This document shows positions 1,884 to 42,246 of a DNA stretch of 64,000 nt, one piece after another. The notes below the pieces were generated by a model. The model ran no database searches. It had not been told where the DNA came from and saw only the letters and a list, made by a program, of their open reading frames with translations. Position numbers and translations under genes: made by a program. Source of the stretch: a virus; IMG/VR virus record IMGVR_UViG_3300033143_003851, positions 9,904 to 73,903 of that record; one strand, given 5' to 3'. The stretch's first letter is position 1. Each line of letters starts with the position of its first letter.

Positions 1884-1885
1884 AT

Positions 1886-2086
1886 TTATTTTCCCCTCCG
1901 TTTTCTTTCGTATGCTAACTCCTCAGCATTATTTGGCACTCGCCTAGGTCTAACTCTTGGCCTAAAAACCTCAGGTTGAGTGGGCTCATCACTCAACCCA
2001 CAGCCAGTACACAGCGTATAAAAAATACAATGTCTTATTAATACTCCGTGTCCGCATCTTCTACATATTGTTCCTACTAATGTCAT
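1886..2086 (-). CDS. Zn-ribbon microprotein with basic tail
   Basis: CRRCG...CTGCG. Confidence 0.6.
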   Translation of the reverse strand: MTLVGTICRRCGHGVLIRHCIFYTLCTGCGLSDEPTQPEVFRPRVRPRRVPNNAEELAYERKRRGK

Positions 2087-2734: not shown

Positions 2735-2933
2735 TATCTTCTCCTACAAATATTGTTACAATCTCTTTAGTATCAACAATTACAGTCCCACTAACAGTTT
2801 CAAATAAAACAGATGCCATCCATATTGTGTGGTTATATGGGTGAATCTCTGCCACTTTCCCATCGCTTGTAGTAATCTCAAGAGGTAAACCAGCATATTT
2901 TTTTAAAAACCTAATTAAATCCTGCATGTTCAT
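2727..2933 (-). CDS. Hypothetical protein
   Basis: ORF with AGGAG RBS upstream; overlaps the next gene. Confidence 0.5.
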   Translation of the reverse strand: MNMQDLIRFLKKYAGLPLEITTSDGKVAEIHPYNHTIWMASVLFETVSGTVIVDTKEIVTIFVGEDND

Positions 2934-2972
2934 GTTGTATAGTCTCCTTTAAATTTTTTCTCAATATGAATA

Positions 2973-3167
2973 TTATAAACCACAACTACCGCCCCTACAG
3001 TATGGATCATAGATACAATTGTGGTCCGTTAGACACATGCAACAGAGCCACGCATCACAATGCACACATAAATATAGTTTTATATTTTTTATATTACATT
3101 TTTCACAAGCTAACATTAACAATACCTCCTTATTATCCATGTAGCAGGACATGTTTGACATCGCCAT
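2973..3167 (-). CDS. B-box/AN1-like Zn-finger microprotein
   Basis: CEKC...CVHC...LCCMCLTDHNC. Confidence 0.55.
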   Translation of the reverse strand: MAMSNMSCYMDNKEVLLMLACEKCNIKNIKLYLCVHCDAWLCCMCLTDHNCIYDPYCRGGSCGL

Positions 3168-3212
3168 ACTCCATCATATCCTTTACTCATCTCTTCAGTA
3201 CAACCAGGACAA

Positions 3213-3956
3213 TTAAGCATATATAGACCACGCATATTTAATATTGTTTTTTGTTAACCTATCGCACGCCTCTACAAATATCTTCATATCAATCTCTGTG
3301 CCTATAAAATTTCTACCAAGCTTGGCACAAACCACAGGGGTTGTTCCTACCCCCATAAAGGGGTCATAGACCGTCGCTCCTGGATATGTGTATAAGGATA
3401 CCAACCAATCAATTAAGCGCTCGGGAAATGCACTAAACTTACCATATTCTGAATCCCCACAAATTTGCCACACATTTCCTGTCAGTTTTGCCTGCCTGAT
3501 TGCTTCAATATCTAATTTTTCTACTTTTGTTTGATATGGTTTGCCCTTAGAATACATGATGATAGATTCCCACAACCAATAAGGGTAGTAAAATGTTGAA
3601 TACGGAGTCTTCAACATTGTGTTAGGCCACCCCCCTACACCTACTGGCTTTTTCCACACAATTTTATTTACAAACTGCATACGATAGTCATGTAAAAACT
3701 CGCTGGTAATAGCATCGTTGTCAAGGTGTTTAGTATTACCTATATTAATAATCATCGTGCCCCCGTCTTTAAGTGCCCTTAAACACTGTTTCCACACAGG
3801 AAATAAAAATTTCTCATGGGCCTCATCAGTTGCCCAATCTGGTCCCCACCTTTTAACGCCTGGATATGGTGGGCTTGTTATTACATAGTCTAATGACTTA
3901 GTTGGTATTGCACATGCAAACTCTAGTGCGTCTCCTAACACCATATCAATTGTCAT
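3213..3956 (-). CDS. Beta-class DNA methyltransferase, probably N4-cytosine
   Basis: ITSPPY (motif IV), IVWKK, AFPERL, YDPFMGVGTT (motif I), GRNFIGTEI. Confidence 0.9.
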   Translation of the reverse strand: MTIDMVLGDALEFACAIPTKSLDYVITSPPYPGVKRWGPDWATDEAHEKFLFPVWKQCLRALKDGGTMIINIGNTKHLDNDAITSEFLHDYRMQFVNKIVWKKPVGVGGWPNTMLKTPYSTFYYPYWLWESIIMYSKGKPYQTKVEKLDIEAIRQAKLTGNVWQICGDSEYGKFSAFPERLIDWLVSLYTYPGATVYDPFMGVGTTPVVCAKLGRNFIGTEIDMKIFVEACDRLTKNNIKYAWSIYA

Positions 3957-3957
3957 A

Positions 3958-4311
3958 CTATGACATCCTAGGAACCTTCAGTGCGTGCCAGTTATCTACA
4001 GTAGCAATATAATGCTGGAACCAATATTCTAGCATTCGGTGTGTTGTTGTAGCCTTTCTCCACGCCCGACTAAAGGCAACACATCGACCAAACCACTTAT
4101 TGTACTCATCATCTGGGTGAACCTTCGAGACGCCAACAAAAACACACATCATATCTGGTGTGCTCATTTTAATCGTGCATTTAATCATGCTCTTATAATC
4201 AGATTCGAACTGCACATCTCCATAATGGTTTCTTATAAAGGAAACCATTGATTTGGTTTCCTTTTTGGTCATTATTAGTTCTGTGCCAGTCTTATTTTTT
4301 ATTTCTTTCAT
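3958..4311 (-). CDS. Hypothetical phage protein
   Basis: GVSKVHPDDEYNKWFGRCVAFSRA resembles a common phage motif (G.a.C.p.D.f....G..iA..RA). Confidence 0.55.
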   Translation of the reverse strand: MKEIKNKTGTELIMTKKETKSMVSFIRNHYGDVQFESDYKSMIKCTIKMSTPDMMCVFVGVSKVHPDDEYNKWFGRCVAFSRAWRKATTTHRMLEYWFQHYIATVDNWHALKVPRMS

Positions 4312-4322
4312 ACTTTAACACC

Positions 4323-4712
4323 TTAACACGGTCTATATGTCGTTTTAAGTGTCCACATATTAGACAATTTTTCTCCAACTTTAACCTTAGAACAATCACA
4401 ATCACTACACCAAAAAAGACCAGGAGATTTATATATATCATATAGTTTTTCTCTTTCTCTATCCCATCCAACCACACTATATTTTCCAAGTATGATCTTA
4501 GTTTTTCCTTCATTAGCTTTAATGACAATATCATATGAAGTAGTTAAATACACAGTTTCATTATACCAGTCTACTAGTTCTTTGTGGCAGTTTTTATGTA
4601 TGTGTCTAACAAAGGTCATATTGTCTCCATCAAATTCAATATAGCTTATTTCTTTTATTTCTTTATTATCAATAGTAACTTCTATAGAAGATCCATCCAG
4701 TAGTTGTTTCAT
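4323..4712 (-). CDS. Hypothetical protein
   Basis: ATGA overlap with the deaminase gene. Confidence 0.5.
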   Translation of the reverse strand: MKQLLDGSSIEVTIDNKEIKEISYIEFDGDNMTFVRHIHKNCHKELVDWYNETVYLTTSYDIVIKANEGKTKIILGKYSVVGWDREREKLYDIYKSPGLFWCSDCDCSKVKVGEKLSNMWTLKTTYRPC

Positions 4713-5191
4713 GTCAGCACCTTATCTGGAATCACTGTAAAGGTAATTTGATTCATCCATGTTTTAGGAATTGGTGGTTCACACTCATATGGTATATCGT
4801 TAAGCCCACTAATAAACATTGTTGTAACACCAGCATATATCAGGTGTTTCATACACCCTGCACATGGCAAGCTAACCCCATTCTGTCCATATAAATACAA
4901 GGTGGAGTCCCTGATTCCACCACCATGCATAAGTGCAACCATCTCAGCATGGATACAACTAATCTCTAAGTTAGTTCCTGAGGAAATGTTTTTTCGTAAA
5001 CATCTCCTACCGCCACACCTACCAGCTAAAGAGATAGGGGACCTATTCCAACCACTCACTATTCCCCCTGTCGGTAATTTAATAACTGCCCCCCACTTAG
5101 ACCTACAACATGGAGACATATTACTTGTTTTCTTTGCTAGCTTCATCAGGTCTATGTGTATCTTTTTTAACTTCAGTTCCACTACCTCCAA
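4709..5191 (-). CDS. dCMP deaminase family protein
   Basis: SPCCRSKWGAV, GWN, CIHAE and PCAGC zinc-binding motifs. Confidence 0.88.
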   Translation of the reverse strand: MEVVELKLKKIHIDLMKLAKKTSNMSPCCRSKWGAVIKLPTGGIVSGWNRSPISLAGRCGGRRCLRKNISSGTNLEISCIHAEMVALMHGGGIRDSTLYLYGQNGVSLPCAGCMKHLIYAGVTTMFISGLNDIPYECEPPIPKTWMNQITFTVIPDKVLT

Positions 5192-5726
5192 TTTTTGTAT
5201 ATATTTGCCTTAAAATTTTCCACATAGCGTCATTACTAAACCCACAGGACTTTTTCTCTGGGCAAAATCCCCTATATAAACACTCTGGAACACACACCAT
5301 CCATAACTCAGGATCAATTTTCTCCAACTTCTCTAACATAAGATCCCAAGCATGTCTAGTTTCGCCAGCTGCCCTGCCACACATCCGTTTCCTTGATATA
5401 TTAATAATAGCTTGTGCGTTAATAACACACGAAGCTGTGATGAGGGCATCTTGATCTTTTTTACCTCGGTTGCTATCAGGTCGTTGACTATGGATAAACC
5501 ACTCTACACCAATCTTGTGCCTAACGAAGTGGACATGGACCCAATAAGGCATATCTGTCCAAACACAAATATATGTTAGTGCTCTAATAGGACTATGCTC
5601 GGCCATCAGCACACCGTACTTAAAATCCTTGCTAGGTTCTTTGTGGGTCATCTTTTTCCCAGCAGTAGCTCTAGCTAGACCAAGTGCAGTGCTCCAACCT
5701 GTAAGTTGTTCTATTTCACATTTCAA
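5121..5726 (-). CDS. thyX: Flavin-dependent thymidylate synthase (ThyX-like)
   Basis: AEHSPI, FVRHxxxxxxxxSQR, SRKRMC...ET, and VPECLYRGFCPE..SCG C-terminal motifs. Confidence 0.78.
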   Translation of the reverse strand: MKCEIEQLTGWSTALGLARATAGKKMTHKEPSKDFKYGVLMAEHSPIRALTYICVWTDMPYWVHVHFVRHKIGVEWFIHSQRPDSNRGKKDQDALITASCVINAQAIINISRKRMCGRAAGETRHAWDLMLEKLEKIDPELWMVCVPECLYRGFCPEKKSCGFSNDAMWKILRQIYTKIGGSGTEVKKDTHRPDEASKENK

Positions 5727-9141: not shown

Positions 9142-9412
9142 GCATCATCTTAATATTTTTATTACTATATTTATATCCTTCCTTTTTTAGCATTCTCACT
9201 CTCTGACTATATGTTGGCATCCTAATACCGTGATATGGGTCCCATTTTTTTGATTTTGCCCATAAACTATAACACGTATCACAAATATTTGTTCTATAGA
9301 AAGGGGCATGTCTGGATCTACAATATTTGCATCGTTTTGGTTTTTTATCTTTTGTGGGCATTTTATAGAATGAGAATGCGCTAAATGAGCTAAATGGGCT
9401 AACATATGGCAT
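9086..9412 (-). CDS. Basic Zn-finger protein
   Basis: CKYC...CDTC. Confidence 0.55.
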   Translation of the reverse strand: MPYVSPFSSFSAFSFYKMPTKDKKPKRCKYCRSRHAPFYRTNICDTCYSLWAKSKKWDPYHGIRMPTYSQRVRMLKKEGYKYSNKNIKMMHAASATIMEVEDETSGDV

Positions 9413-11046
9413 TATTTCACAACCTTTATTGGTTCGTCTTTTCTGGACCCATATCTGTATACAGTAACTCCCTTAAGACTTGGTAAAAACTTAAGTAAGT
9501 TATCTGACAACTCATCCACACTATACCCCGATGGCAGTATGATCGTTTTTGAAATACTGCCATCTGTCCACTGTTGAACCTGCTTCTGCACAGCTAGATG
9601 TTCCTCTGGTGGACACGAATATGCCGACACAAGGTGATCTGTTGGTAATCCAAAACCACTTAGTTCTTTATATATTGAAGCAAACTCGTGAAATTCTTTA
9701 TACTTACTCCCATCATATCTAATTTTCCTAATCCACTCAATAGCTGGCGGGGGTTCAATTCCACTAGTTGTCTCTGCTACAATACTAATAGTTCCTGTTG
9801 GGGCCACTGCTAATAGTTGCATGTTTCTCAAACCATATTGTTTAATGTGTGTTATAGTTGCTGTATTAAGTTTCTTAGCTATAGGACTTGCGAAAAATTT
9901 ATCACGACAATTATACCATGATGGTGCAGGTCCATCTGTTTTAGCTAACATAGCGCTTGTCTCATATGCTATATTAAGAATGGTGGACATTATCTTATCA
10001 ATAGTTGTCATACACCGTTCGTTATCTCCATATCTAATTCCCATCCTAGCTAACAGATTATACAACCCCATAAACCCAACACCAACTTGTCTGTAGTGGT
10101 GGGACACCACTCTAATCTTATCTATAGGGTATGTGGTCTTATCTAATACTTTATTAAGCCCACACACAGCTAGTTTAGTTGCACTTGCTAGTCCAAGTAA
10201 GTCTACTCCACCCTCATAGTAAAAGTTTTCTAAGTTAATAGATGCCAAACAACATGACCCATTCTCTGGTAGGGGCACCTCGCCACAGGGGTTTACTCCA
10301 TATATTGGGGCATCTATGTATGAATCTCGTTGCATATTTTCTATATTAATAATACCTGGTTCTCCGTTCTTCCATGCTTGTTCTACAATTTTTCTCCACA
10401 GTATTCTAGCAGGTAAAGATGCGGTTAAAGGAATATTATGGGCTGATCCAAATGGTTTAAGATTCCACATATCATCATTTTTCACAGCTCTAATGAAGTC
10501 ATTATTGATAGCTACAGAAATATTAAAAGATGACAATATTTTATCGTCTTTTTTGAAGTTGATGAACTTAAGAATATCTGGGTGAGAAACATCCATTATA
10601 CCTATTAGAGCTGCCCGCCTCTGTCCACCTTGTTCCATAGTCTTAGCAATTGAGTTAACAGCATTCATAAACCCAAGGGGCCCACAAGCATAGCCCCCTT
10701 TAGTATATATATAACTACCTTCTTCTCTTAGCTTACTTGCATTAATCCCAACACCACCGCCACTGGAGCTAACTATAGAAAAGTCTCTAAACAACGAACC
10801 TATAGATTCTATATTATCATTCCAACCTAGTGTAAAACAGTTCAGTAATGCTGGGTGCTTCCGCCCAGCATTTCGCATAGTTCTACCACCAAATATAACG
10901 CTCTTCTGATACATCAGTGATTTTAAAGTATTTGGTAGACCTAAAAATTTACACGTCCTATCACAACATTGTTCCCAGGTTTCATCTGGATTTAGTGCGT
11001 GTCTAGATTTAAATGTTGCCTCTGCAATAGGGGTCTTGAATGACAA
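9412..11046 (-). CDS. nrdJ: Class II (adenosylcobalamin-dependent) ribonucleotide reductase
   Basis: LLNCF, GGGVG, QGGQRRAA, HPDI..FI, GEPG, NPCGE, CCLASINL, APTGT, ISKT, KGVTVYRYGSR; no small (R2) subunit gene in the window. Confidence 0.92.
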   Translation of the reverse strand: MSFKTPIAEATFKSRHALNPDETWEQCCDRTCKFLGLPNTLKSLMYQKSVIFGGRTMRNAGRKHPALLNCFTLGWNDNIESIGSLFRDFSIVSSSGGGVGINASKLREEGSYIYTKGGYACGPLGFMNAVNSIAKTMEQGGQRRAALIGIMDVSHPDILKFINFKKDDKILSSFNISVAINNDFIRAVKNDDMWNLKPFGSAHNIPLTASLPARILWRKIVEQAWKNGEPGIINIENMQRDSYIDAPIYGVNPCGEVPLPENGSCCLASINLENFYYEGGVDLLGLASATKLAVCGLNKVLDKTTYPIDKIRVVSHHYRQVGVGFMGLYNLLARMGIRYGDNERCMTTIDKIMSTILNIAYETSAMLAKTDGPAPSWYNCRDKFFASPIAKKLNTATITHIKQYGLRNMQLLAVAPTGTISIVAETTSGIEPPPAIEWIRKIRYDGSKYKEFHEFASIYKELSGFGLPTDHLVSAYSCPPEEHLAVQKQVQQWTDGSISKTIILPSGYSVDELSDNLLKFLPSLKGVTVYRYGSRKDEPIKVVK

Positions 11047-16299: not shown

Positions 16300-16581
16300 C
16301 TAACCACCAGCATGTTTACTCATAAGTCTTCTAACCTCTTCGGCTTCTGAATTACTAACAACAACAACTTTGTTCCGCCTAGCATATGACTCAAAGTCCC
16401 TAAGCTCATCCTCTGCCAACACAATCATCCTTTGAGCATTAGACCTGATAGTTGCCAACTCTTCATCAGTTAAGTCCCTGGCCTCTTCAAGCACAGCTTC
16501 AAGCACCACATAACAATCCTTTTTCTCATACTCTCCCGTGCTTATGGTGTTGCCCATACTAACTTTAATCGAATATGTCAT
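16300..16581 (-). CDS. Hypothetical phage protein
   Basis: ORF; IKVSMGNTISTGEYE resembles a widespread small phage family. Confidence 0.55.
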   Translation of the reverse strand: MTYSIKVSMGNTISTGEYEKKDCYVVLEAVLEEARDLTDEELATIRSNAQRMIVLAEDELRDFESYARRNKVVVVSNSEAEEVRRLMSKHAGG

Positions 16582-16834
16582 AAATAACCAACTCTATTTA
16601 ATATAGATCCTTCAACATATGGGGGAACCTTACTGCACTTAGGACACACCCAATCTCCACCTGTATCTGTTGTAGTGTATATGCAATATATACTACAACT
16701 TGGACATTTATCTCGTCTCATAACAACCACCAGAAAGTAGCAGCACACATAGCAAACAATAAGATGAAAATATTTAGTGGCATTTTCATCTCACCCTATA
16801 AAATTGTTCTTCTCCCATGTTTAGTCCTCTGTAT

Positions 16835-19088: not shown

Positions 19089-19283
19089 TTAGTAGAACTT
19101 TATTAAGTGTTTCACACAACAGAAATGGTGTAAGCTACCATCAAACTCAGATCCATACCCATGAGAGACACTTATTGTATCGTACTCTAGCTTTTTTCCA
19201 CACATATCACAAGAATATTTTTTATGATATTCGCCACATTTACTACATCTGCTTTCGCTGATTGCCATAGCTACTCCCCCCAC
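19089..19283 (-). CDS. Zn-finger microprotein
   Basis: CSKCG, CDMCGK, FCCVKH. Confidence 0.6.
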   Translation of the reverse strand: MGGVAMAISESRCSKCGEYHKKYSCDMCGKKLEYDTISVSHGYGSEFDGSLHHFCCVKHLIKFY

Positions 19284-20567: not shown

Positions 20568-21470
20568 TCATCTCTTTACCTCAATATCTCTACCAGAACT
20601 AGTGTTAATAAGCCTGATATTTTTATCATCGAAGATAACAAATCCTTTAGTCCACTTAGGAAACTTTTCTGTGCTCTGTTTATACTCCATGTTAGCTGAG
20701 TCGCACAGACAACCCATATCAATTACGTGAAATGCTCCACTGTGAGACATAGTATATGTAAGGTGGTGCTGGTGCCCAACAATAACGTTTTCATGGTATG
20801 TCTCAGCAATAAAATTACCAAGCCTACCTCTGATAAGGGAGAATTTCCTTGGGTGGCAAACTCGCCACCGCTCTCCTATAGTATCAACAAAGAACATATG
20901 GTCAATATCTACCGCCTTAATTTTCCGCCCAAACTCATCTACGGCAAGAGACAGCATCTTGTCATATGATACTCCAATACTCCTGGACATCCTCTCATCG
21001 TGGTTCCCTCGAATCACATAGATCTGGTCAAATACCGAGAGGGCATCTTCAAACATGACAATAGCCATGTTAATCTCTTGCTCTAGTGGGATTGTCGGGT
21101 GGTTGTGGTGAAACTTACTAATCCTCTCACAGTCTAATGTATCTCCACCAAGCACCAGAGTTGGTTTAGTATATTCTTTAGCGTGCGACAACACGCTGGC
21201 CCAACTGTCTTGACACATATATGGGATATGCATATCGCTGACCATAAAAACAGTGGACCCTTTAATCTCAAATGTCTTAAATTTGTTCTTAACTGGGCTG
21301 ATGTAGAACATCCCACTAGGAGATTCCTTGACGCTAATCCCTGTTTCTTTCTTAATTGTGCTCAAATATCTTTTCACAGTATCTGGTTTGACACCCAGAT
21401 ATTTAGAGAGGAAAGTCATATTTCGGGCTTTCCTCTGGATAATATCTACCATTTCTTCATATCTATTCAT
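20568..21470 (-). CDS. HTH-fused calcineurin-like metallophosphoesterase
   Basis: N-terminal HTH (LSKYLGVKPDTVKRYL); SDMH, GGDTLD, RGNHDER, CHP, VGHQH. Confidence 0.88.
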   Translation of the reverse strand: MNRYEEMVDIIQRKARNMTFLSKYLGVKPDTVKRYLSTIKKETGISVKESPSGMFYISPVKNKFKTFEIKGSTVFMVSDMHIPYMCQDSWASVLSHAKEYTKPTLVLGGDTLDCERISKFHHNHPTIPLEQEINMAIVMFEDALSVFDQIYVIRGNHDERMSRSIGVSYDKMLSLAVDEFGRKIKAVDIDHMFFVDTIGERWRVCHPRKFSLIRGRLGNFIAETYHENVIVGHQHHLTYTMSHSGAFHVIDMGCLCDSANMEYKQSTEKFPKWTKGFVIFDDKNIRLINTSSGRDIEVKR

Positions 21471-23174: not shown

Positions 23175-23247
23175 AGCCTGCCGAAGGACTCGAACCCCCA
23201 ACCTGTGGTTTACAGGACCACCGCACTACCAATTGTGCTAGACAGGC
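23175..23247 (-). tRNA. tRNA-Thr(UGU) with C33
   Basis: GCCTGTC/GGCAGGC-U73, GTGGT-CCTGTAA-ACCAC, TTCGAGT loop. Confidence 0.85.
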
Positions 23248-23424: not shown

Positions 23425-24213
23425 TTACATTTCCAATAGTTTTTTCTGTGATGCATCACAATCATTACAAACATCGAACTCATTTTTAGTCTTCTCAATT
23501 AGTCCTGTATCCCAACAAGATGGACAACTCACATATCCTGTACTATAATCTTTATCACAGCTTTTATGGAAGCACCTATCACAAATATCTCCAAGCTGAT
23601 CCACTGTGTCTTCATCACAATAGGCACAAAGATATCTATCCTTTTCTGGGACGGTTTCTGACTGCTCAACTAATACAATGTTAGTTGGACAATCTGAACA
23701 TATTGCCATACTATGAGCATCGCTTTTCACATGCTTATAGCACACGGATCTACAGCAAGAACTACAAACAAATGAAATTTCCCCTTCGCAGCCTTCAATT
23801 TGACACAAAAATCCTGTATCAATATCATCTCTAAGTCTTTGTGAGTTAGCCAAAACAAATTTAGATGCGCTGTCTACAGACGTAAGGTCATCTAATGCAT
23901 TAGTAATTTTTTTATGACCATGAATTGTTTTTATAATTATAGATGGAGTATAGTGAGGCAACTCATGTGCTACCTGATGAAACAACACCCTCAATGCTGT
24001 AAAGTAGTTACAGCATTTTATATGAGTCTCCATCTCACGAATAACTCCAAGGGCAGTATATACAATACCAGCCTCTTCTTTTTCTCGATGATGTGTATCA
24101 CACAGAAAGAACACATTGTCAGCAGTAGCCCACTTATGGGTTCCTAGATCATCACAACCATCATTACCACAAGGCTCTACAGCAACCACAGGTGGCGATT
24201 CTGTCTCAGACAT
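23425..24213 (-). CDS. Multi-Zn-finger protein including an AN1/B-box-like finger
   Basis: CGNDGC..CDTH; CQIEGC..CSSC..CYKH..CSDC; CAYC..CDRC; CPSC..CNDC. Start at MSETE after a GGTGGAG RBS. Confidence 0.7.
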   Translation of the reverse strand: MSETESPPVVAVEPCGNDGCDDLGTHKWATADNVFFLCDTHHREKEEAGIVYTALGVIREMETHIKCCNYFTALRVLFHQVAHELPHYTPSIIIKTIHGHKKITNALDDLTSVDSASKFVLANSQRLRDDIDTGFLCQIEGCEGEISFVCSSCCRSVCYKHVKSDAHSMAICSDCPTNIVLVEQSETVPEKDRYLCAYCDEDTVDQLGDICDRCFHKSCDKDYSTGYVSCPSCWDTGLIEKTKNEFDVCNDCDASQKKLLEM

Positions 24214-25132
24214 CAGAATCTCCACCGTTTGACACATGCCAGTCCATAATAATTCTGCTATAGAGATCAAGCTTTGTCTCCATGAGACCTGGGGCACTAT
24301 TCGTTTCGAGGACAACAAACTCACCATCTTCTTTTCTGATAACATCAATTGCTGCAATCTTTAGTCCAATTGCTTCTGAAGCTCTGTTACATAGAGTTTC
24401 AAGCTCTGACCACGCAGTAAACCTGTCTGGATCTCTGCGACTATGACGATAGCCATTGTCAAATGCTCTAATTTTGCTCACAACATCATAGAAAATTTCA
24501 AAGTAAAGAGTAGTATGTTCAGCAATATACTCATTATAGTACTCCATATCGTGGATTTTTTGATCCAGATATACCATACTCCCATTCACCATATGAGCTC
24601 TATACTCTGTGTCGCTGGGAACCCATTTCATAAGAATAGTTTTATTATCCCTGTCAGATCTTGGTAACATATTATTACTAGTAATCTTATTTGCTCTGGC
24701 AATTCTGGTGCCAGATCCTCCATGATGAGAGTTTGGTCTCATAATAATAATATCATTACCCTGCTCTCTTAACCAGTCAGTGGGCACAACTCTACTGGTA
24801 ATAAACTCTGGAACCGCAATATCAGCATCTCTCAGCTTAGCTAGCATAACATCCTTTCTTCGGCTGTTGTCAATACTGCTGATGGTATTAAGCTCATTAG
24901 ATGGGTTAACATATCCTACTAAAGGGTGTCTGGACCCCCACCTTACAAGATTAAATTCGTTTTCACGGGTCCATACTTTAAGGCGACGACTTACAGAGTC
25001 AGTATATGATCTGCTATTGTGGTTAAGGCCATAGATATGATCTCCAACACCCATGTCAGATATTTTTAAACTTAGTCGTCTACCTGTCCCCGCCATGCTT
25101 TTACCAAACAAAACGATGAGTTTTTTGCCCAT
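24206..25132 (-). CDS. ATP-grasp peptide ligase (RimK/YheC-like, phiEco32 type)
   Basis: VRWG, RPNSHHGGSG loop, EYRAH, IGLKIAAIDVI, VLETNSAPGL. Confidence 0.88.
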   Translation of the reverse strand: MGKKLIVLFGKSMAGTGRRLSLKISDMGVGDHIYGLNHNSRSYTDSVSRRLKVWTRENEFNLVRWGSRHPLVGYVNPSNELNTISSIDNSRRKDVMLAKLRDADIAVPEFITSRVVPTDWLREQGNDIIIMRPNSHHGGSGTRIARANKITSNNMLPRSDRDNKTILMKWVPSDTEYRAHMVNGSMVYLDQKIHDMEYYNEYIAEHTTLYFEIFYDVVSKIRAFDNGYRHSRRDPDRFTAWSELETLCNRASEAIGLKIAAIDVIRKEDGEFVVLETNSAPGLMETKLDLYSRIIMDWHVSNGGDSDV

Positions 25133-26169
25133 TACTTTTCCTCCATTTCTTTTAGTGGTTCTGTAATTGTCATCCTACACTTATAACACGCTTTAATACT
25201 ACTAATTTTATTATCTACCTTGCACCTTTGACATTTGGCAATCATCTCTCCAAATGACTTTCTATATGTTTGAGACCACATCTCGTAGCCTACAATTGCA
25301 TCTATGTTTTTAACGCTATGTATTTTTCGTTTAAGAGATTTACCAGTACATACCCCAGTAGTAATCTTCGGGGTTATAGTCGTCGACTTCGTCGCCTTCG
25401 ACACAGGTGGGGTTTCCGCCCCGCTGCGAGGGAAATCACTACTATACCCCCCACTGTATACAGAGGCAGGCTTTGTAAGCTTGTCCCCAAATACAACTGT
25501 AGGACCAATTTCACAGTCTAGCAGGGCCATTGTCTTACTTGGAAAATTCCATACTTCTCCAAGATTCTGCATCATAGTTGGGATTCTAGATGCATATATC
25601 CAACCACCGTTTTCTAGTTTCAATCCTTGAAAGTCTCCATATGAAACATATACATATGTGCTTTGGTGTTCGTCATCATCTTCTACTTCTTGCCACAAAT
25701 ATACTCCAGTTCCGTATATAGGGGCATAGATTCCCAACTCTGCAGTCAAAATTGCCATAATCATAGAGTCAGATGAGAAGTGTAAATCTGCCAAATCATA
25801 GTCATACCCAATGGCCAGACTGAGAATATGTTGGTCATATCCTCTCCAGGTGCCATTATGAGCAAAAACTACTTCTCTAGTTTCGCAACTCTGAGCAGAT
25901 ATATGAAATGGGTGGCAAAGAATATCTTCTTTACCGCCTATAGATGCGATTCTAGTGTGAAAGATAAAATCCTCATCTCCAAAATGTTTTGATGAATCAA
26001 AGCATTCTTTGACAGTCATTTTTAAAGCCTTGTCGACATAGGCTTCTGTCCCCAGAAATCCACCAATTCCATTACCGTGCCCTCCACCTGTCTTTTCAAG
26101 AGCTTTAAACAGGTTAATCATATCATCTTCGGCTGTAAATTTATGAGATACTAAAGCTAGCCTGCACAT
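25132..26169 (-). CDS. Class II (Ntn) glutamine amidotransferase with C-terminal Zn ribbon
   Basis: N-terminal nucleophile MCRL, HGNG, FHTRIASIG, CHPF, AHNG, SDS. Confidence 0.9.
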   Translation of the reverse strand: MCRLALVSHKFTAEDDMINLFKALEKTGGGHGNGIGGFLGTEAYVDKALKMTVKECFDSSKHFGDEDFIFHTRIASIGGKEDILCHPFHISAQSCETREVVFAHNGTWRGYDQHILSLAIGYDYDLADLHFSSDSMIMAILTAELGIYAPIYGTGVYLWQEVEDDDEHQSTYVYVSYGDFQGLKLENGGWIYASRIPTMMQNLGEVWNFPSKTMALLDCEIGPTVVFGDKLTKPASVYSGGYSSDFPRSGAETPPVSKATKSTTITPKITTGVCTGKSLKRKIHSVKNIDAIVGYEMWSQTYRKSFGEMIAKCQRCKVDNKISSIKACYKCRMTITEPLKEMEEK

Positions 26170-26170
26170 A

Positions 26171-27298
26171 CTACCACTCTCCTTGAGTATTGCTCTCTTT
26201 TACTTGCATTTTACTAATGTTTGGTAAATTATCTTTAATTATCTTAATTAGTTGTTTATAAGAAGGAGCATTAATGGTTGTAATAAATTCCTCTTCAGGG
26301 CGATGAGGGTGGTTAGGACTGAAGTCATTATGTTTAGTATCATATGATACATGATTATCAGCATCTGTTTTATTGATATTAATCTTTTCAGTAACAACCA
26401 ACCTTCTGCTAGCCTTAATTAGCTTCTCAATGGCAGATTTTTTAAAACCACCACTTACTGTAACTTTAGCAGGGCCTCTCTCTAGGTCCCAGTTCTTAAG
26501 GATTGATAGCTTATAGAATGTTTTTTTGTTTTCAATCATATCAAAGATAGGGTTAATCCAAGACTCATATCTACTCCAAAGATGACAAGTCTGAAATACC
26601 TCTTTAGCTGTATTTACCGTAGGCATGAGGACATCAGTATCAATTGTTCTGAATGCCTCTTTAATTTCATCACCAGAACTACTGATTGCTAATATTCTAC
26701 GCAACACAGATTTTTCTCTGAGATATTGGTCAGTAGCTACCCACATCATAGCTAGGGCAGCCTTTGTCATAGTTGGGTGAGTTAACCAGCTACTAAGTGC
26801 CCTATACTCTACATGTCCATCTCCCTTAAACATACGGCTAGTAGAGACCCCTGCTAGATGTCCATAACTACTACTGTTTCTCCTTCTTATGCCCATCATC
26901 CTATTCTCTACTAGAACGAGCGGAATGCCTATCATGTTATCCATATATCTACATATGTTTTCTCTTTCACCAAGCATGTTATCATTAATATCTCCACTGA
27001 TATGAATATGACCACCAATAACATCTGACCCAATTGCTCCTCCTCCTCCAACAAGCATCCAACCTGGGGGGATGAATCTTCCTATGTCTCGAAGACAACC
27101 TCGGATCTGTTCCATATGTTCCTCTGGGGTTCCTGTGCCAGGTCTAATTTCAAACACCCGACCACAGTGATCCTGTCCAATTCGTCTAGAGCTTCCTATG
27201 AAGTTGTGTGCCACAGACAACACAGTATTCACATTACAGTATCTAAGATCATCCTCTTTTACTAACAGTAACTCTGGGTCGCTTCCTATAAGCAGCAT
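26171..27298 (-). CDS. phiEco32-like COOH-NH2 ligase (glutamine synthetase / gamma-GCS fold)
   Basis: IGSDPELLL, FEIRP, GGHIHI, RRR..YG, HVEYRALSSWL. Confidence 0.88.
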   Translation of the reverse strand: MLLIGSDPELLLVKEDDLRYCNVNTVLSVAHNFIGSSRRIGQDHCGRVFEIRPGTGTPEEHMEQIRGCLRDIGRFIPPGWMLVGGGGAIGSDVIGGHIHISGDINDNMLGERENICRYMDNMIGIPLVLVENRMMGIRRRNSSSYGHLAGVSTSRMFKGDGHVEYRALSSWLTHPTMTKAALAMMWVATDQYLREKSVLRRILAISSSGDEIKEAFRTIDTDVLMPTVNTAKEVFQTCHLWSRYESWINPIFDMIENKKTFYKLSILKNWDLERGPAKVTVSGGFKKSAIEKLIKASRRLVVTEKININKTDADNHVSYDTKHNDFSPNHPHRPEEEFITTINAPSYKQLIKIIKDNLPNISKMQVKESNTQGEW

Positions 27299-27742
27299 TT
27301 ACTTTTCCTCCTTTAACATATCTTTAACATGATTTATATCTAGTATAAGTTTTTTTAAGTTCCATTTACACACAGTACTATCGTCTAAAATTACCTTTAT
27401 TTTTGATGATATTCTATGAATTTTTCCATATATCGTATTTATACCTCTAATACGATTAGAATTAATACTACAGTAATTAGTTTTACTAGATACGTAAGCT
27501 GTTTTAATATGAGAAAAAATGACTCTGTTGGCAGAAGAAAAATGAGTTTCAACCCAACTAAATAATTCTATACTAAGTCTATGAGCTATTGTCTTAATAT
27601 TGGTATTAAATTGCATATCTATCATAGATATAAAACCATATGTGTCCCATAGGCTTTTTAAAAACAGATCTGCCTCAATTATTTCTTCAATCTCTTGGGT
27701 GGTGATGTGCATATAGTTTTTCCCACCTACATATCTCTGCAT
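27299..27742 (-). CDS. Hypothetical protein
   Basis: AT-rich ORF directly upstream of the ligase. Confidence 0.5.
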   Translation of the reverse strand: MQRYVGGKNYMHITTQEIEEIIEADLFLKSLWDTYGFISMIDMQFNTNIKTIAHRLSIELFSWVETHFSSANRVIFSHIKTAYVSSKTNYCSINSNRIRGINTIYGKIHRISSKIKVILDDSTVCKWNLKKLILDINHVKDMLKEEK

Positions 27743-28839: not shown

Positions 28840-29615
28840 TGTTGTTCCCCAGCCTTCTTAAATGCTCCAAGGATGGTGGACATCATGTCCATCATCCTTT
28901 TAATTTCCTTCATGTTCCTCTCCTGCCCAGTAACCATGAATTTAAGTTCCCTCAGAGTCTCGGTCAATCCCCCCGATAAGTTACTGAGGTGGTGTCGAAC
29001 CTCTGACATCATCTCAGTAGACTTATCCATCTGGTCAATGACATCTGCCCACCTCTCATTAAATGTAGGCTTATCCATTGAGACATGTTCATATCCTGGT
29101 ACTGGTACTGGCACAGGTTCAGGTTCAGATTTAAGCTCTGGCCAAACTCCTCTAAAATGAACTCCTCTTGGAATCCTTTTCTTATACAGAACAATATCAC
29201 ACATTAGATCATCTGTATTTGGAGGGTATGGAAGATGCTCTGGGATTGCGACGACTTTGCCCTCGCAATCATCCAGAACCTGTTTCAAGAAGGTAGCCCA
29301 TGTCTGAACGTTAGGGGAATCCCTTGAGTGCTCACAACATGGCACGAAGATAATCTGTCTATCATCTTCGACATTTACGTAAACTGGTTCTGCCATCTTC
29401 ATATTTTTGAGTTGGCTCATGGTCTCCTCATCTGCCACTGAAGCTGCCCAACCATTGTAAGCAGACATAAACACATATACATCTGCATCCACCTTATCCA
29501 CCGTTGGGTTGCCTGTAACTGCAGGTTCAATCACAGTTGCAGTTTCCATCGCTCGCTCTTGAACCTTGGCCTCTAGTTGAGCAATCACTTGCTTAACGCT
29601 GATATTTTCTTGCAT
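28836..29615 (-). CDS. Hypothetical protein with EPEPVPVPVP linker and C-terminal coiled coil
   Basis: ORF with GAGGTGA RBS. Confidence 0.65.
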   Translation of the reverse strand: MQENISVKQVIAQLEAKVQERAMETATVIEPAVTGNPTVDKVDADVYVFMSAYNGWAASVADEETMSQLKNMKMAEPVYVNVEDDRQIIFVPCCEHSRDSPNVQTWATFLKQVLDDCEGKVVAIPEHLPYPPNTDDLMCDIVLYKKRIPRGVHFRGVWPELKSEPEPVPVPVPGYEHVSMDKPTFNERWADVIDQMDKSTEMMSEVRHHLSNLSGGLTETLRELKFMVTGQERNMKEIKRMMDMMSTILGAFKKAGEQQ

Positions 29616-30321
29616 TATTTCACCTCTAGTTGAACTCTACTGTAATTTTTGCCTCTAATAACACCACTACCATTATCATATAAAACATCATATAAATATC
29701 CCATGACTCCACGACTATGTCTAGCACAAATCACTCCTACTTCTCCCTTATATGGCCCTGTAAGACAGGTAACTTTGGTTCCAACCTGTAAACGACCAGG
29801 AGCAGGGTGCTTGGCAGCGTCGTATGATTCAATATATCTTTCAAGAATCCACCCAGTCGTACAATTAACCATATACTCTAGACTTGTTTTTGGATTTGTT
29901 AGCACAGAAATACGAGTAATATATCCAGACAAATTAATATGTTGGACATACACAAGATCTCCCACCTCATACTTATTATTTGAAGTCATCTTCTTAATAT
30001 TCTTTGATACGGTATATAAATTACACTTAGCAATCATAAGTATGTTACTATTCACTTCAATACCTACAAAATTATTAGGGAATAAAATTTTTATTACTCC
30101 AGATTCTTCTCTACCAGCTTCCCACCAATATACAGTATCTCCGACTTTGAAGTTCTGTGTAAGCGGAGGTGGAGTTTTGTGCCAAAATGGATCAAGAGTC
30201 TTTACATACTCTGGTTTCTTCTCATGGAGATTGTCAGGGATAATCTCCATGCAGGACATACACCAGTTTCCACAACTCTCTTTCCCACAGGTTTTACACT
30301 TATATATTTGTAAATCCTTCA
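29615..30321 (-). CDS. Zn-finger plus three tandem KOW/SH3-like repeats
   Basis: FKVGDTVY, YEVGDLVY, LQVGTKVT repeats; start moved to MKDLQ because the track start lies inside a tRNA. Confidence 0.65.
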
Positions 30322-30331
30322 TACTATCACA

Positions 30332-30438
30332 TGGACCTAAGAGGATTCGAACCTCCATTCTTCCTGTCCCTACTCTCCCAGTCTAAGCAACTAAGATTTC
30401 GAACTAAACAGGATGCTTTTCCATTAAGCTATAGGCCC
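30332..30438 (-). tRNA. tRNA with 35-nt anticodon-loop insertion, probably Pro(UGG)
   Basis: GGGCCTA/TAGGTCC-A73, D and T arms intact, TCCTG/CAGGA anticodon stem; removing 30371..30405 gives loop TTTGGGA. Confidence 0.7.
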
Positions 30439-34111: not shown

Positions 34112-34326
34112 CTATAGATACTCTTAACATGTAGTTCCTCTTTGGTTACAATCTCCCACTCTGGATCGGGCGAAACTAGACCCATAAAGTTATATATCTC
34201 TGTAACTCTAAGAAGATGCCACTGAGCATGTCCTTCATAAGAGATATACTTATATTTGTGCCTAAATTTCTCTCTGATAGTAATATCTACAGCATCCTCA
34301 CAATACAGACAACTCACTGGTGCCAC
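34081..34326 (-). CDS. Zn-finger microprotein
   Basis: CLYC...YRCPNCGREL. Confidence 0.6.
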   Translation of the reverse strand: MAPVSCLYCEDAVDITIREKFRHKYKYISYEGHAQWHLLRVTEIYNFMGLVSPDPEWEIVTKEELHVKSIYRCPNCGRELC

Positions 34327-34715
34327 CTTCTGCCACAGGACCAGCAGTCTTCTGGATCATCAGACCCAGCACCACAATCAGGGCAATATTTCGGTATCTC
34401 CACGACACTACCTAGCTGCGGTATTACCAATACCTTGATAGTCTCATCTTTGACACTACCGCTGTCAGATAGTCGAGATTCACAGCACCAGACACAGTTA
34501 CAGTTGACAAAGGGACCATATTTCTCATGGTCTACAACTTTTTGATCTTGGTTGTCAGGGTCAACAATCTTACCAACTACTGCAAAGTCTGTGAGACGCC
34601 CCTGCTCATCATAGAACAAGACCCACATTGAGTTGGTTTCCTCAATGTATATGAAGTGTCCATCTTTCATAAGTATTCCCCCAGAGGGTCCACATATTTT
34701 GCAATCTTTACCCAA
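34314..34715 (-). CDS. Zn-ribbon protein
   Basis: CNCVWC, YCPDCG..CWSCG. Confidence 0.55.
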   Translation of the reverse strand: MGKDCKICGPSGGILMKDGHFIYIEETNSMWVLFYDEQGRLTDFAVVGKIVDPDNQDQKVVDHEKYGPFVNCNCVWCCESRLSDSGSVKDETIKVLVIPQLGSVVEIPKYCPDCGAGSDDPEDCWSCGRRWHQ

Positions 34716-35513
34716 TACTGTCTCTGTTTAACAGTTATGTCATTTCTGCCCAGAAAAGATATGATATCTTGCACGAAGTCATGCTCAGATATAAATAATT
34801 CAGACTCAGCATGGTCAGCGTGGATAGACATCAGATATTCCTCCTGGTGGTGGTGGAACAGATGCTGCATTCATACTTACCCACCCCTTTCTCTTGGATG
34901 TTCACGAGCTTGTGGATGTTTGGCACCCCACAATCTCTGCACATAAGATTTTTGTTCTCGGTTGAGAAAGGCGAGTGAGGACAGTAGTCTCTGTGGTCAT
35001 TAGGGTTGTGCAACCCGAAAGGTTCACCACAGTTCATGCAGACCCAGTGTCTGGATTTGGTCTGAGTTAGGGTACTCACTGCACAGTTGGGACATGTTTT
35101 CATGTCGCAACTACATACTCTGGATCTCTGAAATGCAGCAAGGCTCTGCTGCATTAAATCCAGTTGGTGGTCTGTGAATTTGGCACTAGACAAGATAATC
35201 ATCCTCCATGTACTGCCTCTCGATATCAAGATACCTCTGGATCTCATCTGCACACAGAGGATGGATCTGAAGGGCATCCATGTCTGAAAACATGGCTTTA
35301 CCACACCACGAACAGAGTCTGGTCATCAAACTACCTCCTGTCGAGACTTCACATCTCGATACCAGATCACCCTGCGACGGTAATGCTCTGTATAGCTCAG
35401 TCCAGTCTTCTTCAGGACAATACGATCCCTGAGGCCGTGGGCAGCTCGACTGCCACCCTGCCCAACACTTCTCAGGTCTGCCAACCGCTTCTCCAGGAAG
35501 TTCAGTTTGAGTT

Positions 35514-38210: not shown

Positions 38211-38230
38211 TGGTGAGTAAGTTGGTGGTT

Positions 38231-38250
38231 GTATATAAATGTTTGGTGGG
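38231..38250 (-). promoter_or_regulatory. Archaeal BRE+TATA promoter
   Basis: Minus strand CCCACCAAACATTTATATAC. Confidence 0.7.
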
Positions 38251-38393
38251 ATGTCCCATGATGAGGCACCGAGAGTTCTAGGTGCAAGGGGTTAAAATGG
38301 GGGATATAAGGGAATATTGGTGTCATGAGGGGTGCCAAAAAAGGCGGGTTTTTCGGGGGTTAGTTGGTCAGGGGCACCAAACCATAGGCAGCT

Positions 38394-38900
38394 GGCACTA
38401 GTGAGCCTGGAGCTATGGTTGGAGTTGGGGGAACTATATAAAGCCTATGCAATATAGCTAGTGAAAAGACCAACTATGTGTAATATGGCCACCAGTTGTA
38501 TAGATATGTGCATATACCGATCCTATAAATATAGGCAACTAGTGTTAGAACTAGTGTATTGAGAATATAGTTCCTAGTATCAGGTCTAGTAACCTAGTGT
38601 ATGGGTAGCACTAGTTAGTAACCTGGTGTTAACTAATAAGGGTTTAGTAACTAAACCTCTTCTATACACTGTGTGATCTCTTGAAGAGTCTTCTCAGAGA
38701 GGACCGGTGCCTCGGAGAGACTCGTGGTTTGGAGAGGGGGACAGGGGGCTCTATTTGGGTACTACCTCCACAACATTATAATTTTTCTCAAATCTATATT
38801 TCATTGATTGCACTAGGTATATACCTTTAGGTATATACTAGAACATAGTACTACTCTATGTTCTATACTATGTTCTATACTATAGTATATACACTGTGCA
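38394..38900. repeat. CTAG-rich repeat and hairpin block at the strand switch (candidate origin or packaging region)
   Basis: Repeated CTAGT and TAGTAAC, palindromes GGTTTAGT-A-ACTAAACC and GTATATACC-TTTA-GGTATATAC, TTCTATACTAT x2. Confidence 0.75.
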
Positions 38901-38932
38901 TTAGAACCGTTTACTGTTTTTGATATTTACTA

Positions 38933-38948
38933 GGAAAGGTTTATAAGT
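38933..38948 (+). promoter_or_regulatory. Archaeal BRE+TATA promoter for the right arm
   Basis: GGAAAGGTTTATAAGT about 24 nt before ATG 38971, suggesting a leaderless mRNA. Confidence 0.75.
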
Positions 38949-38970
38949 AGGCGTAACTAATGATATAACT

Positions 38971-40497: not shown

Positions 40498-42246
40498 ATG
40501 GCAATGGCGCTCAAGGAATATATAGGCTCCAAAAATATCTTTATGGAAGAACTTAGGTGGCCAATTACAGTTGCTAAAGAGTCAAGCCGAGAGTTCGCCT
40601 ACCAAGAGATGTTAAAAATATATAATCGAGCAAACTTCTATATGAACCACTCTAAGAACGAAAAAGAGTTGATGTTAAAAGTTTTTAACGACTATGAAGT
40701 TTTTTGTATATTTTTTCGCCGGCTAAACCTTAGTGATATAGATGGCAACATACAACTAGCATCCATGTATCCTACGCCAGCTCAATCTAAAATTACAGAG
40801 ATGATATCTGAGTACGATACTATATATGGGATGTTCTCACGGCAGTCTGGTAAAACTGAGTGGGCATCTACATATGGTCCCTTCCAAGCTATTAGGTCTG
40901 AGGGATATATGTTAAATCTCCTAGCTCCCACTGAGAGGCAGTTAATTGTGATGAAAAATACCCACGATTTTCTTAGTGGGAATGAATACTTGAGGGAAAA
41001 CTTCGTGATGCCTAACAAAGGGGGAGAACTTAATAAGGAGAGCATCACATTCGGAAGGAACAAATCAAGAATATCATCTATGACACTCAGTCAGGCACAC
41101 AGTGGAGACACGAAGAGAGGTATAAGTGGGCACTGTATCATTGATGAGTTTCCGCTGTTAGATAAGAAAACTATTGATGATCTTATTGAGCCTATCCAAT
41201 CGAATGCAAGAATCAAGGTTAAGATTATATATGTGGGAACACCTAAGTTAGAATATAATCCAGATATCGAAACAGAAATGGATACGCTGATAGAGGCGGG
41301 TATAGCGGGCTTCATCCATGTAAACTGCTGGGAGAATATAGAGTTTGGGGCAACTGCCAGAGATAAGATATCTAGGCGATTCATTAAGTTTAATATTCCC
41401 TGCAAATATGGGAGGACAGGCTATTGTCCAAAGTTTTATAAAGATGGTGGGACATTTATTCCCCCAGACCCTAGGCGGGCAAGTTTTAAGTGCGACGAAG
41501 TATGTAAAAACTATGATTCATTTGTTATGGAGAATCTAGCAGAGTTTCCATCTGGATCAAATAGAGTGTTCCCTAAAAATTGGCTATATAATAATTCTCG
41601 GGCTGATGGCAGACTAACTCAACCTCACAATATCAGAGATGTTGGTGATAGGGTTATGTCAATTGATTTAGGGTTTGTTGGAGACCCTACAGTAATATTA
41701 GTTTGTGATCCTGTTTTGAAAACGGGGATGGAAGAATATGCTCTTAGAGTTATTGGTTGGCACGAGATTCAATCATCTGGAGACATGAGTCGAGGCAATG
41801 ACCCACTAAGAGAGGCCATCCAGAGATACTACTTACTATATAATCCTAATACCATATACATTGATATCACTAGGAGTCGGGAGTTTGTATATGGGTTAGT
41901 TAAACATGGGGATAAACTTATCCCTAGAAATAAATTTTATGCGTGTGAAGTGGAGCGGAAGAAAAATTCGTTTGGTGTGTACTGGGCTAACCATGCCACC
42001 AAACATGAGATGATGGTCAACCATAGGAGCCAAGTTCAGCAAGGGAATTGGATTGTTCCACAGAACCCAAGTGAGTTTTGGTCTACTTGGTTTAATGACC
42101 ACTACAAAACAAAGGCAGAGGAAAGTTCGGACCAAAGATATAAGCTATATCCAAATACTGGTCATACTTTGGCAGCTGCTATGCAAGCGAGTTTATGGCT
42201 TGCTGGAAAAGGAAGGGGATCTCCACCTAGTTTAATGGTGTTATAA
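40498..42246 (+). CDS. terL: Terminase large subunit
   Basis: Adenine-binding Q motif (PTPAQ), Walker A SRQSGKTE, APT..Q, RG, Walker B CIIDE, GTP, nuclease SIDLG..GDPT. Confidence 0.92.
   Translation: MAMALKEYIGSKNIFMEELRWPITVAKESSREFAYQEMLKIYNRANFYMNHSKNEKELMLKVFNDYEVFCIFFRRLNLSDIDGNIQLASMYPTPAQSKITEMISEYDTIYGMFSRQSGKTEWASTYGPFQAIRSEGYMLNLLAPTERQLIVMKNTHDFLSGNEYLRENFVMPNKGGELNKESITFGRNKSRISSMTLSQAHSGDTKRGISGHCIIDEFPLLDKKTIDDLIEPIQSNARIKVKIIYVGTPKLEYNPDIETEMDTLIEAGIAGFIHVNCWENIEFGATARDKISRRFIKFNIPCKYGRTGYCPKFYKDGGTFIPPDPRRASFKCDEVCKNYDSFVMENLAEFPSGSNRVFPKNWLYNNSRADGRLTQPHNIRDVGDRVMSIDLGFVGDPTVILVCDPVLKTGMEEYALRVIGWHEIQSSGDMSRGNDPLREAIQRYYLLYNPNTIYIDITRSREFVYGLVKHGDKLIPRNKFYACEVERKKNSFGVYWANHATKHEMMVNHRSQVQQGNWIVPQNPSEFWSTWFNDHYKTKAEESSDQRYKLYPNTGHTLAAAMQASLWLAGKGRGSPPSLMVL

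Follow-up and report, generated by a model that had tools for sequence, protein, structure and literature searches.

What does the four-gene block at positions 23425–27298 of an IMG/VR virus contig encode: a dedicated four-component ligation system, or a known three-enzyme module followed by an unconnected gene? The stretch of DNA analyzed (hereafter, the window) comprises 64,000 nucleotides, bases 9904–73903 of record IMGVR_UViG_3300033143_003851, a 73.9-kb IMG/VR virus genome with direct terminal repeats; positions are those of the window. The block consists of four co-directional minus-strand open reading frames (ORFs), confirmed as real, for a COOH-NH2 ligase, a class-II N-terminal nucleophile (Ntn) glutamine amidotransferase (GATase), a RimK-like ATP-grasp enzyme, and a Cys-rich multi-zinc-finger protein. 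With moderate confidence, the first three genes are read here as a minimal, diverged amidoligase module of the phiEco32/LUZ24/N4-like kind, situated in the early/replication arm of a tailed virus that probably infects an archaeon, and the Cys-rich gene is not regarded as a dedicated component.

The enzymes and the phiEco32-type module

The ligase belongs to Pfam family PF14395 (phage phiEco32-like COOH.NH2 ligase type 2), which is named after the phiEco32-type module. The match has an E value of 1.6e-29 over model positions 1–245 of 254 and a score of 103.4 bits (cut-off 25), which became 104.2 bits when the genome was searched; phrog_3815, “COOH.NH2 ligase”, is matched at 7.6e-6, and no other Pfam family is matched at E ≤ 0.1. 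The catalytic domain, which has a glutamine-synthetase (GS)/GCS2 fold, spans aa 1 to ~270 and is followed by a ~100-aa tail with no assigned domain. An exhaustive phmmer search of 1.84 billion representative sequences yielded 627 relatives, the closest of which shares 32% identity (E = 2.9e-20). The protein retains 15 of the 15 invariant columns in a 30-member family alignment: G5, D7, E9, G41, D43, E50, R52, the GGHIH motif, Y145-G146, and E164. Assignment to the Pup ligase group PafA/Dop was considered and dropped, as the ligase matched PF14395 only.

The GATase begins with MCRLA, which places Cys2 directly after the initiator Met. Behind its Ntn domain (aa 1–233, nt 26169–25471) come a disordered linker and, at the C-terminus, a zinc ribbon of the form CxxC-x11-CxxC (CQRC-x11-CYKC; aa 313–331, nt 25233–25177). 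Pfam GATase_4 is matched at 9e-4 with 18.7 bits, under the cut-off of 23, and the sequence appears too diverged for this curated model; a homologue with 31% identity (P0158) carries PF13522. A four-sequence alignment shows that C2, R73, N105-G106, and D134 are kept, the set known from PurF-type enzymes, at nearly identical positions. The AlphaFold2 (AF2) model has predicted local distance difference test (pLDDT) values of ~70–90 over most of aa 1–233 and is disordered past aa 233. It matches the GlmS glutaminase domain (1xff) at E = 1.9e-8, as well as PurF, AsnB, and the γ-glutamyl amidohydrolase EgtC (4zfl), with a Foldseek probability of 1.0 to 1xff, 1ao0, and 1ct9. The protein is therefore predicted, from sequence and model together, to be a stand-alone class-II (Ntn) glutamine amidotransferase-like protein, which shares the fold and catalytic residues of EgtC and of the GlmS, PurF, and AsnB glutaminase domains but not sequence-level membership in these groups.

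The ATP-grasp enzyme matches phrog_2599 at 4.3e-27 and Pfam RimK at 2e-4, with weak matches to R2K_2/3 and Dala_Dala_lig_C, and tblastn finds it in 159 phage records at 24–29% identity. Its Mg/ATP motif, IDVIR...VLETNSAPG, aligns with RimK (7qyr) and Ddl (5d8d), and D263, E276, and N278 form the Asp...Glu-x-Asn signature. Among the NCBIfam models, MptN is matched at 5e-7 (29 bits versus a cut-off of 350) and the RimK family (TIGR00768) at 7e-7 (29 bits versus 143.4). Because these scores are far under every NCBIfam cut-off, the enzyme appears to be RimK-like, yet not RimK, MptN, or CofF. Its likeness to these α-L-glutamate ligases lies in the C-terminal Mg/ATP motif, and its layout is that of the phage-type ATP-grasp enzymes.

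A preliminary description of this DNA, made from the letters alone, had named the three enzymes and judged their catalytic motifs intact. Family, fold, and motif evidence agree with these identities, and the residues are retained in the family alignments. The description had also proposed kinship with the trio of phiEco32-like phages, which the gene order and the homology of the GATase and ATP-grasp enzymes to those of two phages bear out.

The phiEco32/Kuravirus-type amidoligase module is reportedly the subject of work by Iyer, Abhiman, Burroughs, and Aravind from 2009. The window was compared with six loci, namely those of Escherichia phage NJ01 (a Kuravirus; L002, JX867715) and Alcaligenes phage vB_Af_QDWS535 (L003, OK172329), and four IMG/VR loci (L004–L007) retrieved with the ligase alignment. 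All are distant, so conservation is gauged against distant cassettes. NJ01 and QDWS535 share the arrangement [PF14395]–Amidoligase_2–GATase–ATP-grasp–(GGACT), and the window has the identical order of ligase, GATase, and ATP-grasp enzyme on one strand, likewise among early/replication genes. The GATase and ATP-grasp enzymes are demonstrably homologous to those of the phages. A profile built from the GATase and three relatives matches the cassette GATases of NJ01 (1e-11) and QDWS535 (2.5e-14), and the ATP-grasp enzyme aligns over its full length with both phage enzymes, with K93, an HxGxG loop, E176, R222, D263, E276, and N278 in common.

The window departs from the phage module in several respects. 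It harbors a single ligase (PF14395), whereas NJ01 and QDWS535 also encode Amidoligase_2 (PF12224). This second ligase is often, though not always, included in the module, and a search of the complete 73.9-kb genome at E ≤ 0.1 gave no match to it. A GGACT/GGCT γ-glutamyl cyclotransferase (PF06094), present in NJ01, likewise has no match in the genome. The enzymes of the window are shorter (345 versus 470–562 aa for the GATase; 308 versus up to 398 aa for the ATP-grasp enzyme), sequence identity is at most 29–32%, an orphan multi-zinc-finger gene lies behind the ATP-grasp gene, and the virus itself is unrelated to the phiEco32-type phages and probably archaeal.

In all four IMG/VR loci, a PF14395 ligase adjoins a class-II GATase beginning “MCRL...”, and an ATP-grasp gene accompanies the pair in one (L006). 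Because the pair recurs in four of four loci and the ATP-grasp gene in one, the ligase and GATase appear to be the conserved core of a modular system. The trio of the window is then a minimal, highly diverged copy of a known module of hypothetical function. The ligases of the four loci share 21–28% identity with that of the window, and their contigs are also rich in small ORFs with CxxC motifs. L006 carries two ligases, the ATP-grasp gene, and an SNF2 helicase, and in L004 an ATP-dependent DNA ligase lies near the pair.

The GATase tails of NJ01 (L002:1710-3398) and QDWS535 (L003:2605-4017) carry paired CxxC motifs as well. A zinc ribbon on the GATase thus seems to recur across copies of the module, and no published description of this appendage was found for it. 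In NJ01 (JX867715), the GATase frame is open from 1365 (locus 1365-3398), 5′ of where the annotation starts it (1710). As the annotated protein does not begin with Met-Cys, the start in the record was probably placed too far downstream.

Both OM43 phages (PMC10580990) and Vyasavirus, a putative virus of Poseidoniales (PMC11706807), have been reported to carry amidoligase and GATase genes as auxiliary metabolic genes (AMGs). As in the window, these genes lie in a replication module of a genome that also encodes a metallophosphoesterase; in contrast to the window, their ligases are of the PF12224 type. Vyasavirus was rejected as a relative: it lacks PolB and has a murein amidase (PMC11706807), whereas the virus of the window has PolB and no detectable amidase. 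The roles put forward for the module in the literature are hypothetical: it might modify peptidoglycan or exclude superinfecting phages (PMC5498523, PMC10580990), make secondary metabolites or modulate gene expression in phage or host (PMC11706807), or serve nitrogen metabolism (PMC10945688). No published report was found that names its product (including PMC5498523, PMC10580990, PMC11706807, and PMC4431377).

The Cys-rich gene behind the trio

The fourth gene was proposed in the preliminary description to encode a substrate adaptor of a four-gene system. Its protein contains 22 Cys and 12 His residues, with three Cys clusters (aa 15–42, aa 137–175, and aa 196–252) and a predicted helical segment between the first and the second, and is plausibly a real multi-zinc protein. 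The ATG at 24213 follows a GGTGGAG Shine–Dalgarno sequence; an alternative ATG at 24237 (270 aa) is used by the protein-database gene caller. The gene end given originally implied a 310-aa frame starting with TTG, which is an artifact of the longest-ORF rule.

The description had also recognized AN1/B-box-like fingers, and part of this stands. The middle cluster (nt 23805–23689) is AN1-like as a pattern: residues 137–167 read C-x4-C-x7-C-x2-C-x4-C-x2-H-x5-H and match a regular expression for AN1 spacing (C-x2-4-C-x7-12-C-x1-2-C-x4-C-x2-H-x5-H), and a weak phmmer hit points to the AN1 domain 1wys (E = 0.03). A Pfam match to zf-AN1 does not follow, as no Pfam family is reached at E ≤ 1, and there is no PHROG or NCBIfam match. 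The AF2 single-sequence model is unusable (pLDDT 34), and an Atlas feature search gave sub-threshold leads only (0.85; archaeal hypothetical proteins). A PADLOC match of aa 9–43 to a zinc-finger stretch of an endonuclease effector (14.9 bits) is not regarded as meaningful.

The protein is an orphan: a search of 5.8 billion protein clusters retrieved nothing but the protein itself, a search of IMG/VR returned no relatives, the genome contains no paralogue, and no counterpart is present in any of the six comparison loci, even at E ≤ 10. The preliminary description had named a lack of conservation beside the trio as a refuting result; the gene is missing from all six core-bearing, albeit distant, loci, and over this range of loci the four-gene reading fails.

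Gene spacing was the other ground for a four-gene unit, and the tight coupling noted earlier is accurate as an observation. The ligase and GATase genes meet at TAG-T-ATG, the GATase and ATP-grasp genes at TAATG (1-nt overlap), and the ATP-grasp and Cys-rich genes at ATGTCTGA (8-nt overlap), and all four starts have a Shine–Dalgarno sequence of the AGGAGG/GGTGGAG type. This coupling is nonetheless without power to delimit a four-gene unit because an upstream ORF also abuts the ligase gene and 22 of the 58 neighboring gene pairs on the minus arm (38%) overlap or lie within 5 nt. The upstream ORF, of 147 aa, is probably in the transcription unit of the ligase because its stop abuts the ligase start (TAAATG). 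With a 104-nt gap before it, a further ORF that overlaps the 147-aa ORF is a candidate for the first gene of the unit. The nearest gaps around the block are these 104 nt upstream of 28130 and, downstream, 35 nt and a tRNA-Thr gene. Similar acidic-lysine tails close the GATase (...KEMEEK; 25132–25155, minus strand) and the 147-aa ORF (...DMLKEEK; 27299–27322, minus strand); the likeness may be a coincidence or a shared C-terminal signal for a RimK-like enzyme.

Zinc-binding ORFs are also commonplace here. About 15 mostly small ORFs in the genome have at least two CxxC/Cx4C pairs; examples are 34314–34715, 34831–35304, 29615–30358, 16578–16748, and 19089–19283. Cys content is 7–12% in such ORFs versus 1.8% overall.

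A true four-component system would use the multi-zinc-finger protein as the substrate or recruiting adaptor of viral peptide tagging (glutamylation or amidation), in the manner of RimK and S6 or of PafA/Dop and Pup. Protein modification is established for RimK and PafA. RimK-type and GS-fold ligases can thus act on proteins, and phage R2K enzymes have been discussed as protein modifiers (PMC4431377). The start/stop overlap with the ATP-grasp gene, the good Shine–Dalgarno sequence, the one finger with AN1 spacing, and the recurrence of zinc ribbons on cassette GATases are consistent with such a system. Its standing is lowered, however, by an orphan protein with no counterpart in the six loci that bear the core, by a genome in which overlapping neighbors are the rule and many unrelated zinc-finger ORFs occur with no paralogue of this one, and by a ligase that matches PF14395 alone at E ≤ 0.1. 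No small Pup-like ORF ending in GGQ or GGE lies within 1.5 kb, and Pup-like tagging is rejected for this reason. The four-component system is accordingly held to be improbable, and a dedicated role of the Cys-rich protein in the trio has at most a small chance. A slim chance is given to the specific form in which this protein is the dedicated target or adaptor and the block serves an archaeal virus in tagging proteins, through glutamylation or amidation at the C-terminus or a side chain. If this form held, it would be the first case of a phage amidoligase module with a nameable substrate.

Because the gene is an orphan, is absent from the six loci, and lies where tight coupling and CxxC ORFs are common, it reads as unlinked to the trio. 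It is most likely one of the many small zinc-binding proteins of the genome and the next gene in the operon by chance, so the adaptor role proposed for it is not upheld.

Host, target, and proposed chemistry

An archaeal host, as claimed in the preliminary description, is likely, on circumstantial evidence from the tRNA(CAU), TATA-like boxes, PolB, and the lack of enrichment of bacterial signals. For the first of these, 120 tRNA(CAU) genes were taken from bacterial and archaeal genomes with a pattern that covers the 5′ half only, matches both domains, and is by itself non-discriminating. In the unselected 3′ half, the seven sequences most similar to the viral tRNA(CAU), out of 114, are all archaeal. 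Mean scores are 17.3 for archaeal and 11.9 for bacterial sequences (Mann–Whitney p = 1.6e-6, a value that is optimistic because the tRNAs are mutually related).

The divergent first genes of the two arms are preceded by TTTATATA at −29 to −22 and TTTATAAG at −31 to −24 from their start codons, a spacing that is the geometry of archaeal leaderless promoters. Another TTTATATA lies 37 nt before a late gene of 710 aa, and this sequence occurs 25 times versus 8.4 expected. In contrast, sigma-70 promoter-like sites (64 versus 60) and intrinsic terminator-like sites (15 versus 12) are at the level of shuffled sequence. Among solved structures, PolB stands closest to Pol delta and to the crenarchaeal PolB of Pyrobaculum. 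The ORFs scanned yielded no murein-hydrolase domain, and Pfam scans of the tail-fiber and late proteins gave no match indicative of a host.

The usual hypothesis in the literature (PMC5498523, PMC10580990) would apply if the host were bacterial, with the trio remodeling the peptide stems of peptidoglycan or a cell-surface polymer, for instance as a barrier to superinfection. Every detectable relative of the ATP-grasp enzyme belongs to a bacteriophage, the ribonucleotide reductase (RNR) resembles the class-II RNRs of bacteriophages, and the tRNA retrieval pattern also matches many bacterial tRNAs. Yet the type of the tRNA(CAU), the TATA-like boxes at leaderless-type distances, the missing sigma-70 and terminator enrichment, the affinities of PolB, and the lack of a murein hydrolase all argue for the other domain. 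The large terminase subunit (TerL) and structural proteins also lack any meaningful match among 50,697 phage records and the PHROGs, and the peptidoglycan role is itself putative. A bacterial host with a trio of this function is therefore considered unlikely, though less so than the four-component system.

Another possible target is nucleic acid. Glutamyl and putrescinyl thymidines are known in phages, and the minus arm encodes a deoxycytidine monophosphate (dCMP) deaminase, a ThyX-like protein, a nucleotide kinase, RNR, uracil-DNA glycosylase (UDG), and two DNA methylases, so the trio might modify nucleotides or viral DNA by amino-acid-type hypermodification together with these neighbors. Known hypermodification pathways, however, use other enzymes, namely 5-hydroxymethyldeoxyuridine (5-hmdU) kinases and aGPT-Pplase-type transferases, and to our knowledge none uses this trio. 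The nucleotide genes lie 12–22 kb from the cassette, which has no DNA-binding or glycosylase-like domain. Hypermodification is thus very improbable, the least credible of the readings considered.

For the favored reading, that of a minimal amidoligase module in a probably archaeal virus, the following chemistry may be proposed. With ATP, the ligase would convert a carboxylate, likeliest the γ-carboxyl of glutamate or of a glutamyl moiety, to an acyl-phosphate and join it to an amine. Acting through Cys2, the GATase would release ammonia from glutamine for the amidation of a carboxylate of the ligase product or, in the manner of EgtC, trim a γ-glutamyl amide. The RimK-like enzyme would add one or more amino acids of the glutamate type onto a free carboxylate. 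The predicted product, made in the infected cell, would be a small amide or peptide of the γ-glutamyl or isoglutaminyl type, either free or linked to a protein or cofactor. EgtA and EgtC, in which a GS/GCS2-fold ligase is likewise paired with a stand-alone Ntn domain, may serve as a precedent for this combination.

Several points weigh against the favored reading. The compared tRNAs are not independent data points, Shine–Dalgarno motifs fit both domains, and it is in bacteriophages that detectable relatives of the cassette enzymes and of the class-II RNR occur. A search of 401 archaeal genomes from a single phylum did not find PF14395. The chemical steps above are all predictions from the fold families. 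Finally, the 8-nt overlap of the Cys-rich gene with the ATP-grasp stop, and its number of CxxC-type motifs, the highest among the ORFs of the genome, leave a small chance of a functional link.

Should the host call hold, one core would be present in phages of Gram-negative bacteria and in an archaeal virus, and its target would therefore not be bacterial murein as such. The chief insight that the locus offers is that an archaeal host would exclude a role of the module specific to bacterial murein. The module occurs in hundreds of phages and has for 17 years been annotated as a “peptidoglycan modification” or “AMG” cassette. In a host without murein, the target would have to be common to bacteria and archaea or be supplied by the virus. 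At ~3.1 kb, the copy in the window is also the smallest of the compared forms that has all three enzyme types, which makes it convenient for reconstitution. The value of the locus is limited by a host assignment that is indirect, by the lack of close relatives, and by a zinc-finger gene with no sign of membership.

Genome context

The window comprises two divergent arms that meet at 38.2–39.0 kb (Table 1). PolB, class-II RNR, UDG, and a PD-(D/E)XK nuclease are among the proteins of the minus arm, and the plus arm encodes TerL, a tape-measure protein (PF10145), and giant fiber proteins. In the nucleotide-metabolism set, the dCMP deaminase matches PF00383 (E = 1.2e-9), the ThyX-like protein has a weak match (1.8e-5), the kinase is an AAA/thymidylate-kinase-like nucleoside triphosphatase (NTPase), and the RNR is the class-II, B12-dependent enzyme.

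Table 1. Positions of the cassette genes and other features in the window
Feature	Position	Strand	Length	Remarks
COOH-NH2 ligase	27298-26171	-	375 aa	
Class-II (Ntn) GATase	26169-25132	-	345 aa	
RimK-like ATP-grasp enzyme	25132-24206	-	308 aa	
Cys-rich multi-zinc-finger protein	24213-23425	-	262 aa	
Upstream ORF	27742-27299	-	147 aa	no Pfam or PADLOC match; TAAATG with ligase start
Further upstream ORF	28130-27687	-	141-147 aa	overlaps 147-aa ORF; no Pfam or PADLOC match
tRNA-Thr(UGU)	23175-23247	-		ARAGORN and Rfam; downstream boundary of cassette gene block
Metallophosphoesterase	20568-21470	minus arm		
Nucleotide-metabolism set	2087-5726 and 9412-11046	-		nucleotide kinase, dCMP deaminase, ThyX-like protein, RNR
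Two N6/N4 DNA methylases	1060-1647 and 3213-3956	minus arm		
Large terminase subunit (TerL)	40498-42246	+		Terminase_6N-like (0.99) by protein-language and structure Atlas

TerL has no Pfam or PHROG match, and tblastn against the 50,697 phage records gave a single weak match (E = 1e-2); the structural proteins likewise have no meaningful match in these records or among the PHROGs. The divergence of TerL, as judged from its sequence, is taken to show how far the virus stands from cultured phages. Viral-contig searches with the ligase, the Cys-rich protein, TerL, the ATP-grasp enzyme, and the ligase relative P0002 found no close relatives of the virus, blastn and tblastn with the region and the ligase gave no match among the phage records, and a metagenome scan for relatives returned only a 1.1-kb contig.

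The arms are separated by 760 nt of non-coding DNA (38211–38970) with many repeats of the ACTAGTG/AACTAGT type, G-rich stretches, and TATA-like boxes in both orientations, and this is likely an origin/promoter region. Six tRNA genes, found with ARAGORN and Rfam, are spread over both arms. A further tRNA-like gene on the minus strand (30332–30438) scores 56 bits with the Rfam tRNA model and is not called by ARAGORN. A canonical bulge-helix-bulge is not seen in its minimum free energy (MFE) fold, and the gene is not used as strong evidence on the host. It has a 35-nt insertion in the anticodon loop, which the MFE fold shows as an extended anticodon stem with an inner hairpin, and its acceptor stem contains a G3-U70 pair.

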